IMG/VR virus record: IMGVR_UViG_3300045988_053242
Coordinates: 1-5,907 of that record
DNA length: 5,907 bases
Origin: a virus
Strand: one strand, 5' to 3'
Made by a program: the position numbers and the translations under genes
Shown: positions 2,530 to 5,907 of the stretch, piece after piece
Numbering within the stretch: position 1 is the first letter of the stretch
Layout: each line of letters starts with the position of its first letter
Notes under the pieces: generated by a model
Databases searched by the model: none
What the model was told of the DNA's origin: nothing
Seen by the model: the letters and a program-made list of their open reading frames with translations, nothing else

Positions 2530-2564
2530 ACCGGCACAAGATAGACAAGGAAGCTTGTGCCGGT
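2530..2564 (+). promoter_or_regulatory. 11-bp perfect stem-loop immediately upstream of the Rep start; the loop carries an SD-like aaggaag
   Basis: accggcacaag (2530-2540) is the reverse complement of cttgtgccggt (2554-2564); 13-nt loop atagacaaggaag (2541-2553). The alternative GTG start at 2557 lies in the 3' arm, and the ATG at 2572 is 8 nt past the stem. Confidence 0.8.
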
Positions 2565-2571
2565 AACAAAA

Positions 2572-3561
2572 ATGCCATGTACAAAACCATTAGTATTTCA
2601 GATGGACACGAAAAAGCCGAAACTGTGGGGAAGTCTGGAAAACCTAACAAAGCAAGGACTGCAAACGGACATCATGGACGGAGTCAAAAAAGGAAAATTC
2701 GCATTGTTACCATGCGGTAAATGCGAATATTGCCGAAAACAGATAGCGGACCAATGGGCAACAAGAATAGAGCTAGAAGCCAAAGAGTGGGACGATGTGA
2801 TTTTTCTAACACTGACATATGATGATGAACATATACCATACGGCGAAATTATCAAAGGATACAAAAGCATTCAAAGTCAGACAGTAAGCAAACGAGACGT
2901 GCAGCTATTTCTAAAACGGCTACGGAAAGCGTACAAGAAGCCAATAAAGTATTTCCTAGCGGCTGAATATGGTGACAGAACAAAAAGGCCACACTACCAT
3001 GCAATAGTATTTGGACTAAAGCCACCAGATGCACAATGGTACAAAAACCAAAAGGGCAACAGCTATTTTAAAAGCGAGTGGTTACAAAAAATCTGGGGCA
3101 AAGGCATGATAGACTTTTCGCCAGCACAACCGGGAAGCTTTGCATACGTGGCGCAGTACGTCAACAAAAAAGCCATAGGCACAGAAGAGAGCGTGAAATA
3201 CTGGATGCAAGGCAGAGAACCAGAGTTTAGAATCATGTCAAAAGGTATCGGAGAAAAGTACCTAAAAGAACACAAAGATGAAATCTTGAAAACAGATAAC
3301 ATCATATGCGCGGGAGGCCGCGAGAAAAGGCCTCCGCGCTATTTTGATAAGATTCTAGATAAAGATACCAGCCAAGACACAGAAAGCTATTTTAAGGCAC
3401 ATTCTGACGAGCTGAGAGAGGTTAGAGCCAAACGCAGACGCAATGCAATACAAAGTTTGGTCAATCTCGAACAGAGCACGAGCGTGGATTATAAAACCTA
3501 TCTAGACATTCAGAAAGAAAAGGACAAGCTAAGGCAAAAATGGCGTGAGCCGAAAGAATGA
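2572..3561 (+). CDS. VP4: Replication initiation protein VP4 (HUH rolling-circle endonuclease, phiX174 gpA-like)
   Basis: Motif 1 is FLTLTY (2803-2820). Motif 2 (HUH) is HYHAIVF (2992-3012). Motif 3, with two tyrosines, is YVAQYVNK (3145-3168) and resembles the phiX174 gpA active site. There is also an N-terminal CGKCEYC cysteine cluster. I chose ATG 2572 because MPCTKPL fits the M-x-C-x-x-P N-terminus common in gokushovirus VP4. The ORF-track start GTG 2557 is the alternative and has AAGGA 5 nt upstream. TGA stop at 3559-3561. Confidence 0.93.
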   Translation: MPCTKPLVFQMDTKKPKLWGSLENLTKQGLQTDIMDGVKKGKFALLPCGKCEYCRKQIADQWATRIELEAKEWDDVIFLTLTYDDEHIPYGEIIKGYKSIQSQTVSKRDVQLFLKRLRKAYKKPIKYFLAAEYGDRTKRPHYHAIVFGLKPPDAQWYKNQKGNSYFKSEWLQKIWGKGMIDFSPAQPGSFAYVAQYVNKKAIGTEESVKYWMQGREPEFRIMSKGIGEKYLKEHKDEILKTDNIICAGGREKRPPRYFDKILDKDTSQDTESYFKAHSDELREVRAKRRRNAIQSLVNLEQSTSVDYKTYLDIQKEKDKLRQKWREPKE

Positions 3562-3785
3562 CGCGCACAGCGCTTACAATGAATGGATTAGCCGAGCTCC
3601 GCATACGCTCCGCACGGCAAAGCGCTAAAGCGCATTCAAAACAAAGGAGCAAAACCGGGTTACAAAAGAAAGTTACAATTTTATTACAAAACAGGAAAAT
3701 CATTGAAAAAGCTATTGACAAGTGGTATAATAAGGTAAAGAGAAGAAAGGAAAGTGCAAACCATGAAAAAAATCTACATGAGTGA
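3558..3785 (+). CDS. Doubtful 75-aa highly basic ORF (hypothetical)
   Basis: Its ATG overlaps the VP4 stop (ATGA at 3558-3561), which would allow translational coupling, and the product is rich in K/R. However, its 3' half is overlaid by a near-consensus promoter and by the RBS and start of orf72. I recognise no family motif, and off-frame stops are rare in this T-poor strand. Confidence 0.25.
   Translation: MTRTALTMNGLAELRIRSARQSAKAHSKQRSKTGLQKKVTILLQNRKIIEKAIDKWYNKVKRRKESANHEKNLHE
3703..3731 (+). promoter_or_regulatory. Near-consensus sigma70-type promoter with extended -10
   Basis: -35 TTGAAA (3703-3708), a 17-nt spacer, then TGg TATAAT (TG at 3723-3724, -10 at 3726-3731). It lies about 30 nt upstream of the orf72 RBS aaagga (3746-3751) and ATG 3763. 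Confidence 0.65.
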
Positions 3786-3981
3786 GCAAAATTACATAGA
3801 ACTTAAATTTTTTGGATACATAATGGGAAAAAAATACAATTACGAAAAATTATTTAAAAAAGGAGAAGAAATTATTTGCAGAAAGTACGCATTCGAACTA
3901 GGAGATGAAACAAACAAGGACGGGTTATACAAAGTAGAAAAAAGATTCGTAGAAGATGTAATCATAACAAAGAGAGGTTGA
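3763..3981 (+). CDS. Hypothetical 72-aa protein (orf72), Lys/Glu/Tyr-rich, no predicted TM segment
   Basis: ATG 3763 has aaagga 11 nt upstream. The ORF-track GTG at 3754 sits only 2 nt from that motif. The ORF ends at TGA 3979-3981, 4 nt before the peptidase ATG. It is very AT-rich: hand counts give 14/60 and 16/60 G+C for lines 3781-3840 and 3841-3900. I recognise no homology. Confidence 0.6.
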   Translation: MKKIYMSEQNYIELKFFGYIMGKKYNYEKLFKKGEEIICRKYAFELGDETNKDGLYKVEKRFVEDVIITKRG

Positions 3982-3985
3982 CAAC

Positions 3986-4378
3986 ATGGAAATAAAAGCA
4001 TATTTAGCAGAAACGCAAGGAGACGAACAAATTACAGACCACTTCAAAGTAAAGGAATTTGCATGCAAAGACAAAACACCAATCGTATTCGTTGACGATT
4101 ATTTAGCAGTCATTCTAGAGATTGCAAGAAAAAAAATCAATAAGCCGATTGTAATCACAAGCGGATACCGCACAGTAAGCCACAACCAAAAAGTAGGTGG
4201 AGCAAAATACAGCTACCATACAAGAGGCATGGCAGCAGACATCAGAGCGAACGGAATGACACCAAAGGAACTTGCAAAAGTGCTAAACAGTATCGTGCCA
4301 AACAACAGCGGCATCATCGTATATGACAATTGGGTACATTTCGACACACGAAATGAAAAATACAGAAAGGGGGTGTAA
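3986..4378 (+). CDS. Zinc D,D- or L,D-peptidase of the M15 family (Peptidase_M15A/M15_3-like, endolysin-type cell-wall hydrolase)
   Basis: The 130-aa product has the family signature SGYR....N...GG...S.H..G.A.D and a C-terminal WVHFD. The inferred zinc ligands are H78 (4217-4219), D85 (4238-4240) and H118 (4337-4339), giving the H-x6-D...H arrangement. The N-terminal F.V.EF.C block is also typical. RBS gagagg lies 8 nt upstream. There is no signal peptide or TM segment. Confidence 0.88.
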   Translation: MEIKAYLAETQGDEQITDHFKVKEFACKDKTPIVFVDDYLAVILEIARKKINKPIVITSGYRTVSHNQKVGGAKYSYHTRGMAADIRANGMTPKELAKVLNSIVPNNSGIIVYDNWVHFDTRNEKYRKGV

Positions 4379-4380
4379 AA

Positions 4381-4497
4381 ATGGCACACAGAACCGGAGC
4401 GGGTCGAGGCGACCAAAAACGCTTTACCCAAACAGCAAAGCGAGTAAAAAATATCAACGTCCGGCCGAAAGTCTCGCGAGGCGGCATCCGACTGTAA
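4381..4497 (+). CDS. Small basic DNA-binding/packaging protein (gokushovirus ORF8-like, functional analogue of phiX174 J), 38 aa
   Basis: It is absent from the ORF track because it is under 60 aa. My translation is MAHRTGAGRGDQKRFTQTAKRVKNINVRPKVSRGGIRL. The arginine-rich N-terminus, the F-T-x-T-A-x-R-x-K-x-I-N core and the C-terminal RGGIRL match the pattern I recall for Microviridae ORF8-type proteins. A strong RBS agggggtg (4367-4374) lies 6 nt upstream. TAA stop at 4495-4497. Confidence 0.75.
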   Translation: MAHRTGAGRGDQKRFTQTAKRVKNINVRPKVSRGGIRL

Positions 4498-4528
4498 GCA
4501 ATACAAACAAAAGAAAGGAAGTGACTTA

Positions 4529-4645
4529 ATGGCATTAATCAAAGTCAAGGACGTTAAAGAAGCAATTGCGCTAATGATGAACATTCTTGAAAAGCTCGAC
4601 GAAATCTATCACGCACTGAAGGACGCAAACAAAGAAAAAGAGTAA
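4529..4645 (+). CDS. Hypothetical 38-aa protein (predicted helical, charged C-terminus)
   Basis: ATG 4529 has aaaggaag (4513-4520) 8 nt upstream. The translation is MALIKVKDVKEAIALMMNILEKLDEIYHALKDANKEKE. The TAA at 4643-4645 abuts the VP5 RBS, so the ORF fills the gap between two genes exactly. I recognise no family. Confidence 0.4.
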   Translation: MALIKVKDVKEAIALMMNILEKLDEIYHALKDANKEKE

Positions 4646-4656
4646 AGGAGAAAAAC

Positions 4657-4911
4657 ATGAAACTGAAATTCTATTCGTTCCACGATGCACTGACCAACGG
4701 CTATTCTCAGCCGTTCTTGCAGAACAACCGAGCACAGGCAGTCAGAACGGCACGATGGAAGGCCAACGAGAGCAAGCCCAGTGAAATTGAAGACATTTCA
4801 CTTGTAGAACTGGGAGAATTCGACACGGAAAACGGCTACATGAGCGAAGCAATGCCTGAACACATCGCACGGCTCATCGACCTGAAGGAGACGGCCAATG
4901 TTAAATCCTGA
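4657..4911 (+). CDS. VP5: VP5-like non-structural protein (gokushovirus ORF5 family, proposed gpC-like packaging/replication role)
   Basis: The product is 84 aa, the same size class as Chlamydia-phage ORF5. The pattern F.SF.D......Y..PF.......A.R..........(ED)..L.ELG.FD...G matches my recollection of the family. RBS aaggag (4645-4650) lies 6 nt upstream. Its position between Rep and scaffold is typical. Confidence 0.6.
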   Translation: MKLKFYSFHDALTNGYSQPFLQNNRAQAVRTARWKANESKPSEIEDISLVELGEFDTENGYMSEAMPEHIARLIDLKETANVKS

Positions 4912-5323
4912 AGTGATGGTGCGTTTCTACGGTATGAAGACAGAGAGAGCGATAAACAATCCGGGCAGCGAAACAGCACCAACGTGGAAAGCAGTTAAGC
5001 GACCGAACGGCACAACCGACTACATCGAGCAACCGGACGAGAACACATACGAAAAAATCCAGAAGGCGGGCGAGGGCTACGACCTTGCAAGCGCAATCGC
5101 ACGACTGGAAGCCGGAGATACCAGCATCAAAGCAAAAAGCATGGTATACACCGAAGGCACTGACCTTGAAAATCTGCCGAAGGACATCATGACAATGCAC
5201 GAAAAAGCAGAAGCTGCAGCCGAAACAATGAAACAGCTGAAACAGGTGCAGCAGACCGAACAGCCGAAGCCGGAAGAGGAAGAAAAAAAGGAAGAGGTGA
5301 AGAAAGACGAACAGAAACAGTGA
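4898..5323 (+). CDS. VP3: Internal scaffolding protein VP3-like
   Basis: It lies directly upstream of VP1. The pattern ..PGS......NG.....E.DENTYEKIQ....YDL...I.RLEAGD.S......Y...TD....P.D resembles gut gokushovirus VP3 as I remember it. ATG 4898 has gaaggag (4884-4890) 7 nt upstream and overlaps the VP5 end by 14 nt. Alternative in-frame ATGs at 4916 and 4934 lack an SD. TGA stop at 5321-5323. Confidence 0.6.
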   Translation: MLNPEVMVRFYGMKTERAINNPGSETAPTWKAVKRPNGTTDYIEQPDENTYEKIQKAGEGYDLASAIARLEAGDTSIKAKSMVYTEGTDLENLPKDIMTMHEKAEAAAETMKQLKQVQQTEQPKPEEEEKKEEVKKDEQKQ

Positions 5324-5348: not shown

Positions 5349-5907
5349 ATGGAACGACCACGAAGCAAATTCGACCGCAGTCACCAGCTCCTAACGACCA
5401 TAAACGAAGGCGAGCTTGTACCCATCTATTGCGATGAAGTACTTCCTGGTGATACAGCACGTGTCCAACTGAACGGGCTTATCCGTATGAGTACGCCCAT
5501 CTATCCAGTAATGGATAACGCGTACATGGACACATATTTCTTCTTTGTTCCGTGCCGTCTGCTGTGGGAACACTGGGAGAACATGTTCGGCGAGAATGAC
5601 ACCGACTATTGGGAAGAAAAGACCGAATACAGCACACCGACTTGCAAAATCGGAGGAACGAGCGGACTGGTTAACGGCAGCATCGGGGACTATTTCGGAC
5701 TGCCGACCGGAATCAAAAATCAAATCAAAGTGAACGCACTGCCGGCAAGAGCGTATGCCATGATATACAACGAGTGGTTTCGTGACGAAAACATTGAAGC
5801 ACCGTTAATGCTAGGCTATAAGAAATCGGATGACGCAGGAACAGAACCAAATCCAGGAAACGCAAACGAAGATTACTACTTAAACAAACCGAGCCTGACG
5901 ACAAACA
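5349..5907 (+). CDS. VP1: Major capsid protein VP1, N-terminal part; runs off the window end and continues at nt 1 of the circle (5809-5907 duplicates 1-99)
   Basis: It is absent from the ORF track because there is no stop in the window. My translation from ATG 5349 is MERPRSKFDRSHQLLTTINEGELVPIYCDEVLPGDTARVQLNGLIRMSTPIYPVMDNAYMDTYFFFVPCRLLWEHWENMFGEN... These are classic Microviridae capsid N-terminal blocks (S.FD.SH, VP....EVLPGDT, R...P...P..DN...D.YFFFVP.RL.W). An in-frame upstream stop lies at 5298-5300. Confidence 0.95.
   Translation, partial: MERPRSKFDRSHQLLTTINEGELVPIYCDEVLPGDTARVQLNGLIRMSTPIYPVMDNAYMDTYFFFVPCRLLWEHWENMFGENDTDYWEEKTEYSTPTCKIGGTSGLVNGSIGDYFGLPTGIKNQIKVNALPARAYAMIYNEWFRDENIEAPLMLGYKKSDDAGTEPNPGNANEDYYLNKPSLTTN
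5809..5907. repeat. Terminal redundancy: copy 2 of the 99-nt exact direct repeat (identical to 1-99)
   Basis: See copy 1; identity was checked base by base. Confidence 0.95.

Follow-up and report, generated by a model that had tools for sequence, protein, structure and literature searches.

Microviruses rank with the commonest phages of the human gut, yet little is known of how gokushoviruses bring about lysis of their hosts or acquire genes. Peptidases of the M15_3 family were described in five gokushoviruses and six alpaviruses from humans, with 5 of the 11 peptidase genes adjoining an unknown open reading frame (ORF); horizontal transfer with Faecalibacterium-like sources was inferred and an endolysin role proposed (Roux et al. 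2012; PMC3394797). A peptidase region of approximately 700 nucleotides (nt) with raised identity between the distant microviruses MG945328 and MG945336 was attributed to rare recombination in genomes that are otherwise rigid (Kirchberger, Martinez & Ochman 2022; PMC9239249). Here we describe a related locus in the 5,907-nt IMG/VR record IMGVR_UViG_3300045988_053242 (the window, meaning this whole stretch), a complete human-gut gokushovirus genome in which a promoter-like site, the small gene orf72 and an M15 peptidase gene (M15) lie between the replication gene (VP4/Rep) and the ORF8-like gene. The region is probably a promoter-proximal accessory and lysis module, built by recombination among gokushoviruses, rather than a moron, that is, a horizontally acquired unit transcribed independently.

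The window M15 resembles the peptidases of Roux et al. 2012 in belonging to PF08291, in its occurrence in a human-gut gokushovirus and in its affinity to lysins of Faecalibacterium-type (pro)phages. The orf72 family, the resident promoter, the shuffling across several lineages and the empty or alternatively filled states of the locus are not in that report. As in Kirchberger et al. 2022, nucleotide identity in a peptidase block of approximately 0.7 kb is far above that of the rest of the genome; unlike the block described there, the one in the window is composite, with promoter plus orf72 and M15 coming from separate sources, and it lies beside a conserved hairpin element. A first-pass annotation of this DNA had considered the pairing of an M15 peptidase with a dedicated promoter and an unknown small partner gene uncharacterised, which overlooked that an M15_3 gene beside an unknown ORF (PMC3394797) and a recombinant peptidase region of approximately 700 nt (PMC9239249) were already published. 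Current views on M15 acquisition and peptidase-region recombination are not overturned, and the locus is a further, more detailed example. The composite block, the fixed platform of promoter and 5′ untranslated region (UTR) and the structured element beside it add to what both reports contain, and a literature search for gokushovirus lysis partners returned nothing beyond Roux et al. 2012.

The mosaic structure of the locus emerges from comparison with related genomes, numbered L001 to L042 where they need to be told apart. The backbone of the window belongs to lineage A: at the nucleotide level Rep is 90–91% identical to L001, L003, L022 and L023 and 53–59% identical to lineage B and other orf72 carriers, and VP1 is 78–81% identical to lineage A and 55–60% identical to lineage B (approximately 41% at the amino acid (aa) level). 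Yet orf72 is absent from these four lineage-A genomes and is 89–92% identical in nucleotides to the lineage-B genomes L004, L009, L011, L012 and L014, whose backbones are distant from the window (Rep 53–57%, VP1 57–60%). M15 shows a third pattern, with 90–91% nucleotide identity to L022 and L023 of lineage A, 88–94% to L002, L019, L020 and L027 of lineage B, only 63–66% to L001 and L003, and 63–68% to every other orf72 carrier. Values this high for M15 and orf72, set against those of Rep and VP1, are the mark of a peptidase module recombined between microviruses.

Identity switches in 50-nt windows at approximately 3650, 3960 and 4390, and the borders drawn by the first-pass annotation from composition and gene content (approximately 3660–4380) coincide with these breakpoints. 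Recombinant segment 1 (3650–3960, + strand) comprises the promoter variant and orf72, is 82–96% identical per 50-nt window to L004, L009, L011, L012 and L014 and, judged by this identity, derives from the distant lineage-B gokushoviruses. Recombinant segment 2 (3960–4390, + strand) carries the M15 allele designated type 4 and is 86–100% identical per 50-nt window to L002. The lineage-A backbone resumes in 4381–5323 (+ strand; 82–92% nucleotide identity to L001, L003 and L023).

The two accessory genes do not share one history. Synonymous divergence (dS) from L004, L009, L011 and L014 is 0.2–0.3 for orf72 and 1.4–2.3 for the adjacent M15, and in the clustering orf72 stands beside four M15 types, three of which occur in both VP1 (capsid) groups. 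Together with the identity switches, these results are at odds with a two-gene unit, as the pair had first been described, even though the genes are indeed tightly packed, 4 nt apart. The suggested horizontal acquisition stands in so far as the history of the block differs from that of the rest of the genome; the source appears to be exchange between gokushovirus lineages and not an outside donor. In a profile search of a 5.8-billion-sequence collection the orf72 family comprised 35 clusters (50–89% identity), all on contigs of ≤6.1 kb, and the carriers long enough for checking were gokushoviruses. Run exhaustively on 1.84 billion representatives, phmmer found only four proteins at E ≤ 0.001, all of this small family, with P0029 on a gokushovirus contig and two fragments unplaced. 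The best 120 M15 relatives (65–94% identity) are all on contigs of ≤6.2 kb, so that both genes are found on contigs of microvirus size; the closest M15 relatives outside microviruses, from Faecalibacterium phages, are 43% identical.

An artefact of metagenome assembly, in which unrelated genomes were joined through the conserved element and k-mers shared among M15 genes, has next to no probability. The sequence was assembled as a circle, its ends overlapping by 99 nt, and its breakpoints fall in conserved sequence, as the artefact would have it, but the full-length arrangement recurs in L041 and L042, independent assemblies from other samples that are 99.4–99.9% identical (14–22 mismatches) and that refute a chimera. 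The matching full-length contigs come from JGI 3300006298 and from ENA ERZ28580737, a Human Microbiome Project sample.

The best promoter-like site on either strand of the window lies at 3703–3731 (+ strand) and matches 11 of 12 consensus positions, against 9 of 12 for the next + strand sites. It comprises the −35 box TTGAAA (3703–3708), a 17-nt spacer and the extended −10 box TGgTATAAT (3723–3731), and scoring of both strands bears out its earlier designation as the best promoter in the window. The site is kept nearly base for base in ten divergent orf72 genomes, is also conserved in three without orf72, and is very likely a genuine promoter of the sigma-70/sigma-A type. It is followed by a 5′ UTR (3732–3762, + strand) that is conserved in alignments and contains the ribosome-binding site AAAGGA (3747–3752). 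Three TTACAA repeats (3660–3665, 3673–3678 and 3684–3689, + strand) upstream of the −35 box are possible regulatory sites. Genomes that share this promoter variant keep the repeats, among them L020, L026 and L027, all three of which lack orf72; an operator specific to orf72 was rejected on that ground. A 20-nt repeat, ATAATnAnGTAAAGAGAAGA, occurs with 90% identity at 2121–2140 and 3727–3746, so that the first of these duplicates the −10 box and the opening of the leader of the main promoter. The copy at 2121–2140 lies just upstream of a GC-rich hairpin after VP2, and no matching −35 box was found there.

The promoter does not depend on the presence of orf72. In 32 of 33 related genomes the highest-scoring + strand sigma-70-type site lies no more than 600 nt upstream of M15, whether orf72 is present or not. 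L022, which has the same backbone and M15 type and no orf72, carries TTGCAA-17-TAAAAT with the upstream TG 75 nt before M15, and in its alignment with the window orf72 appears as a clean additional segment. A consensus promoter is present even in relatives whose sequence at the site is unrelated (L002, with 12/12 matches, L001, L005 and L039). The same promoter and 5′ UTR directly precede M15 in L020 and different genes in L026, where the UTR is nearly identical, and in L027. In these last two genomes sequences diverge at or near the start codon, which suggests replacement of the cargo on a fixed expression platform. The first gene after the shared promoter and UTR begins MPYKC... in L026 (approximately 658–760) and MTLKS... 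in L027 (approximately 4936–5040). In L039 and L040 (Rep 83% identical in amino acids) the order is Rep, promoter, ORF8, a 38-aa gene, M15 and VP5, with the promoter directly preceding ORF8. The first-pass annotation had proposed asking whether the Rep(VP4)–ORF8 junction is empty in relatives, and in these two genomes it is.

Downstream, the genes are closely spaced, with gaps of 2–31 nt from M15 through VP1 and of 2 nt between M15 and ORF8. The only terminator-like site on the + strand of the window is an intrinsic terminator after VP1 (1171–1190, + strand), with the stem AGCCCCGC-AAAA-GCGGGGCT followed by ATTTTT; there is none between 3731 and 1171, and an equivalent hairpin follows VP1 in L001, L002, L005 and L039. 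This arrangement points to a polycistronic mRNA that would carry orf72, M15, ORF8, the 38-aa gene (o38), VP5, VP3 and VP1 and end at 1171–1190. A promoter that is there regardless of cargo, with no terminator before 1171–1190, is therefore read as an operon promoter and not a private one, contrary to the initial proposal of a moron with its own promoter.

Morons of lambdoid tailed phages are units of promoter, gene and terminator. The locus shares with them an accessory gene of deviant composition, placed between genes that are adjacent in relatives and directly preceded by a promoter. It differs from them in having no terminator, in a promoter that belongs to the operon and is present without cargo as well (L020, L022 and L039), and in homologous exchange within the family. 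Moreover, insertion between genes adjacent in relatives together with deviant composition was found for orf72 only, not for M15. A true moron, imported as a two-gene unit with a private promoter from a bacterium or a tailed phage, would accord with the G+C content at third codon positions (GC3) of orf72 (0.30, against 0.44–0.60 elsewhere), with the strong promoter directly upstream and with the relationship of M15 to Faecalibacterium phages; M15_3 genes did originally enter microviruses from Firmicutes-type (pro)phages (PMC3394797). This explanation is nonetheless very improbable, given that ORF8 follows M15 after 2 nt with no terminator, that relatives without cargo have the promoter, that no orf72 was found outside microvirus-sized contigs in either sequence collection, that the best 120 M15 relatives are likewise on small contigs and that the two genes differ in history.

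Base composition leads to the same distinction between orf72 and M15. The G+C counts given by the first-pass annotation were exact (14, 16 and 21 per 60 nt for 3781–3960, 31 for 541–600 and 34 for 1501–1560), as was the count of 17 T per 60 nt in 3781–3840. The 5–7 T per 60 nt quoted for elsewhere was unrepresentative: the genome-wide mean is 10.2 (s.d. 3.6, range 2–19), and 17 is high, not exceptional. The minimum of G+C content (GC) in the genome starts at 3659/3660 in windows of 219, 300 and 720 nt (0.247, 0.280 and 0.347, with a mean of 0.46), and the low-GC trough (3659–3960) consists of the promoter leader and orf72, which has a GC of 0.283. M15 (GC 0.399, GC3 0.405) resembles Rep (0.424 and 0.436), and therefore the cassette as a whole is not foreign in composition; the description as compositionally foreign fits the leader and orf72. 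Almost equally AT-rich sequence (GC 0.30–0.33) is found in the non-coding stretch 2268–2570. From its amino acids and the codon usage of the genome, orf72 would be expected to have a GC of 0.355, compared with the observed value of 0.282, so that approximately half of its deficit is due to an amino-acid content rich in K, N, Y, I and E.

The position between promoter and M15 behaves as a cargo slot. It is empty in L003, L020, L022, L028 and L032, and holds F3, an unrelated family of 60–65 aa, in L001 and L002 and together with orf72 in L005. F4, a 59-aa family, occupies it in L002, L021 and L023, and other small ORFs are found elsewhere. F3 and F4 have no match in Pfam or PHROG. Five lineage-A genomes with backbones approximately 90% identical have five different slot configurations. 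Deposited genomes show the same variety. The backbone relatives KX513876 (SH-CHD13) and MT121961 (Rep 94% identical in amino acids) lack orf72, and KX513876 carries an unrelated 65-aa F3 gene and a 59%-identical M15. KX513868 (SH-CHD5) has the same M15 allele (92% amino acid identity) and the same 3561–3653 element (94% nucleotide identity), and in place of orf72 a 488-nt filler with F4 and F3. On these comparisons orf72 is an optional cargo gene of the slot, apparently dispensable for M15. A 5.8-kb single-stranded DNA (ssDNA) phage thus keeps one promoter-proximal position for the exchange of lysin alleles and orphan genes between lineages with only approximately 40% capsid identity.

A more ambitious version of this reading is a doubtful one. 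The post-Rep region would be a fixed expression platform and recombination hotspot, made up of a covarying hairpin element, the TTACAA repeats, the consensus promoter and the conserved 5′ UTR, on which lineages swap orphan cargo precisely at the start codon; orf72 would be one of these genes, new in fold and with a new anti-host activity, either anti-defence or a holin-independent control of a cytoplasmic endolysin. If so, this would be a cassette-like accessory locus in a family thought to be rigid and non-mosaic.

The gene orf72 (3763–3981, + strand) encodes 72 aa. Because its ratio of non-synonymous to synonymous substitution (dN/dS) is approximately 0.2 (median 0.22) and 17 residues are invariant, it is, by these signs of selection, a real gene. 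The predicted protein is soluble and basic (isoelectric point 9.1, grand average of hydropathy (GRAVY) −0.70), with no membrane-active features. The AlphaFold2 (AF2) model (mean predicted local distance difference test (pLDDT) score of 80.7) has a β-α-α-β-β-β topology that includes a long β-hairpin. BFVD entry A0A8S5LB07 ('Microviridae sp. cty645') has the identical sequence (100%), and apart from this entry a Foldseek search of the PDB and BFVD returned no match to the fold. At the sequence level no match was obtained in Pfam, PHROGs or PADLOC, in a profile search of PDB sequences, or by tblastn against 50,697 phage records. The protein may be a dispensable, highly expressed, host-directed factor for host takeover or anti-defence, a putative role to which we give slightly less than even weight; a putative modulator of lysis timing is a clearly weaker candidate. 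Host-directed optional cargo is favoured because orf72 is rare, is not tied to particular M15 alleles and is not needed by M15.

M15 (3986–4378, + strand, 130 aa) matches PF08291 (Peptidase_M15_3) over profile positions 2–108 of 108 (E = 4.5e-22, 78.7 bits against a gathering cutoff of 23.2) and the endolysin family phrog_894 (E = 1e-40). Residues R62, H78 and D85 align with R138, H154 and D161 of the Streptomyces DD-peptidase (PDB entry 1LBU), which are the substrate-binding arginine and two zinc ligands; H118 was assigned as third zinc ligand by inspection, and R62, H78, D85, H118 and D120 do not vary among 29 homologues. The AF2 model (pLDDT of 91.7) has the hedgehog/DD-peptidase fold, with 1LBU as the top Foldseek match (probability 1.00, r.m.s.d. 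of 2.2 over 90 columns), followed by VanY, Ply500 (an endolysin of a Listeria phage), ChiX and LysECD7. By class, the predicted protein is thus an intact LAS-type zinc peptidoglycan peptidase, and its role is most likely that of the phage endolysin. It has a hydrophilic N-terminus, with no signal peptide or transmembrane segment. A third M15 allele (43–45% identical) lies between the 38-aa gene and VP5 in L039 (1388–1780) and L040 (4461–4844). As M15 stands before ORF8 in the window and after the 38-aa gene in these two genomes, it was put in place more than once in this clade.

Compared with the holin–endolysin cassettes of the Faecalibacterium phages Lelie and FP_Toutatis (M15 43% identical), the locus likewise has a small gene tightly upstream of a peptidoglycan hydrolase, but orf72 has no transmembrane segment and the coding strand offers no holin candidate. 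No 19-aa window with a Kyte–Doolittle value of ≥1.6 was found in any + strand frame in the search for a holin or overprinted lysis gene. The canonical cassette, with a membrane protein adjoining the lysin or a signal or signal-arrest-release (SAR) sequence on it, was not found. Hydrophobic stretches all lie on the T-rich complement, and neither a holin nor a signal sequence nor an overprinted membrane protein of the phiX174 E type was recognisable.

Since no + frame encodes a transmembrane protein, export of the lysin needs another factor, and orf72 could be a dedicated partner of M15 (a timing inhibitor, chaperone or release factor) that replaces the holin in a novel holin-less lysis cassette. 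What keeps this model alive is the spacing of orf72 and M15, which is 4–5 nt in each of the 13 distinct carriers, even in L038, whose orf72 homologue P0029 is 50% identical, and the location of the M15 ribosome-binding site, AGAGAGG (3971–3977), within the end of orf72. Several observations weigh more heavily on the other side: M15 directly follows the promoter, with no cargo, in L003, L020, L022, L028 and L032; orf72 forms 35 clusters against more than 982 for M15; it pairs with four M15 types differing by at least 25%, with no co-evolution; the orphans F3 and F4 occupy the same position; and its GRAVY value marks it as not membrane-active. We consider the partner model unlikely, a little more so than a modulating effect on lysis timing, and an obligate partnership is likewise unlikely.

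Directly after the Rep stop lies a conserved non-coding element (3561–3660, + strand), which forms the homology arm on the left side of the variable region. It is 79–97% identical in nucleotides in 17 of 34 other genomes, from both lineages (approximately 40% capsid identity), and, while it abuts the Rep stop in the window, it lies approximately 450 nt past Rep in lineage B. Hairpins are predicted at 3563–3573, 3591–3618 and 3621–3634, the middle one with three covarying pairs and 100% pairing; 0 of 500 shuffles reached the observed covariation. The element may be an origin or a recombination hotspot. An ORF of 75 aa at 3558–3785 was rejected because the homologous stretch contains 1-nt and 3–4-nt indels and is open in differing frames and lengths among relatives. 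An Rfam scan of the window gave nothing significant.

An octamer, TTTCAACA, is present in six + strand copies at 2313–2477, in the non-coding region between VP2 and Rep, where 0.36 would be expected by chance; GC-rich hairpins lie nearby at 2140–2170 and 2177–2197. Nearly every related genome has such a cluster, of two to eight copies. In lineage A the copies precede Rep and are on the + strand; in lineage B they almost always follow Rep on the − strand, immediately ahead of the hairpin element, with L004 as a + strand exception. The orientation of the array thus flips from one lineage to the other. The array is iteron-like and possibly an origin or a Rep-binding site.

RNA polymerase or primase recognises complementary-strand and Rep origins, filamentous phages being an example, and rolling-circle origins are often recombination hotspots. 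The promoter-like site and hairpins might thus be such an origin, conserved for replication and not for transcription. The covarying hairpin element directly upstream, the neighbouring iteron-like cluster in lineage B and the fact that the region is a recombination hotspot are in keeping with this idea. It is nevertheless improbable, as the promoter elements (−35 box, 17-nt spacer, extended −10 box) have the correct spacing, as a conserved UTR, a ribosome-binding site and an ATG come after them, and as the consensus promoter persists where the surrounding sequence is unrelated. Moreover, the ssDNA fold of 3545–3765 (221 nt) is no better than that of shuffles (z = 0.13), with covariation confined to small hairpins. 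Replication and promoter roles are in any case not mutually exclusive.

The preferred explanation, an accessory and lysis module proximal to the operon promoter, can be set out as a sequence of steps. After conversion of the ssDNA to the double-stranded form, host RNA polymerase would initiate at the extended −10 promoter (3703–3731), with a start at approximately 3738, and would read one long operon from orf72 to VP1, stopping at the terminator at 1171–1190. The slot between the resident promoter and the first core gene would accept cargo, here orf72, and M15 would cut the peptide stems of peptidoglycan as a putative endolysin. At least two homologous recombination events between distant gokushovirus lineages would have assembled the module, with crossovers in the hairpin element (3561–3660), at the orf72/M15 junction and at the M15/ORF8 boundary.

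Four points weigh against this explanation. The promoter, the transcription start and read-through to VP1 are predictions from sequence. With no signal sequence on M15 and no transmembrane segment encoded on the + strand, the putative endolysin would lack a recognisable route to the wall. The fixed orf72–M15 spacing, kept down to 50% identity, could mean functional coupling to the lysin. Finally, no donor with both orf72 and type-4 M15 was found, and therefore the number and order of the recombination events are uncertain.

In phiX174, the constitutive promoter PD follows the replication gene and serves a polycistronic structural operon with leaky hairpin terminators, and lysis depends on the overprinted membrane protein E, which inhibits MraY. 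The layout of the window resembles that of PD, and its phage encodes a muralytic enzyme instead of E. The lysin has no recognisable export partner, and a conserved structured DNA element flanks the hotspot. With orf72 and the F3 and F4 families, the locus offers a concrete, testable case for gokushovirus lysis and accessory-gene function.

Gene calls and profile searches place every gene of the window on the + strand. Bases 1–99 are 100% identical to 5809–5907, a 99-nt terminal direct repeat that represents the overlap of a circular assembly, and the true circle is therefore 5808 nt. VP1 (539 aa after removal of the duplicate) runs from 5349 across the origin to 1160, followed by VP2 (1199–2056), a non-coding region of 500 nt, and VP4/Rep (2557–3561). 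Downstream of M15, and in the same predicted operon, are an ORF8-like basic protein (4381–4497), the 38-aa gene (4529–4645), VP5 (4657–4911) and VP3 (4898–5323). The set of VP1 (Phage_F), VP4 (Rep), VP2 (pilot), VP3 (scaffold) and VP5 on one strand is that of the Gokushovirinae, whose circular genomes measure about 4.5–6 kb. Core-gene matches were to PF02305 (E = 2.2e-89), PF23343 (E = 1.2e-20), phrog_18604, PF09675 (under its curated cutoff) and PF20577, and the closest deposited genomes are human-gut records annotated as Gokushovirinae.

The 38-aa protein (MALIKVKDVKEAIALMMNILEKLDEIYHAL...) is predicted to form an amphipathic helix. It is 69–97% identical across lineages, whereas in the same comparison VP1 is approximately 41% and ORF8 approximately 47% identical, and similarity of VP5 and VP3 is undetectable; the protein is either unusually conserved or likewise exchanged. 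In lineage B, gene callers put a 75-aa gene at the corresponding place.

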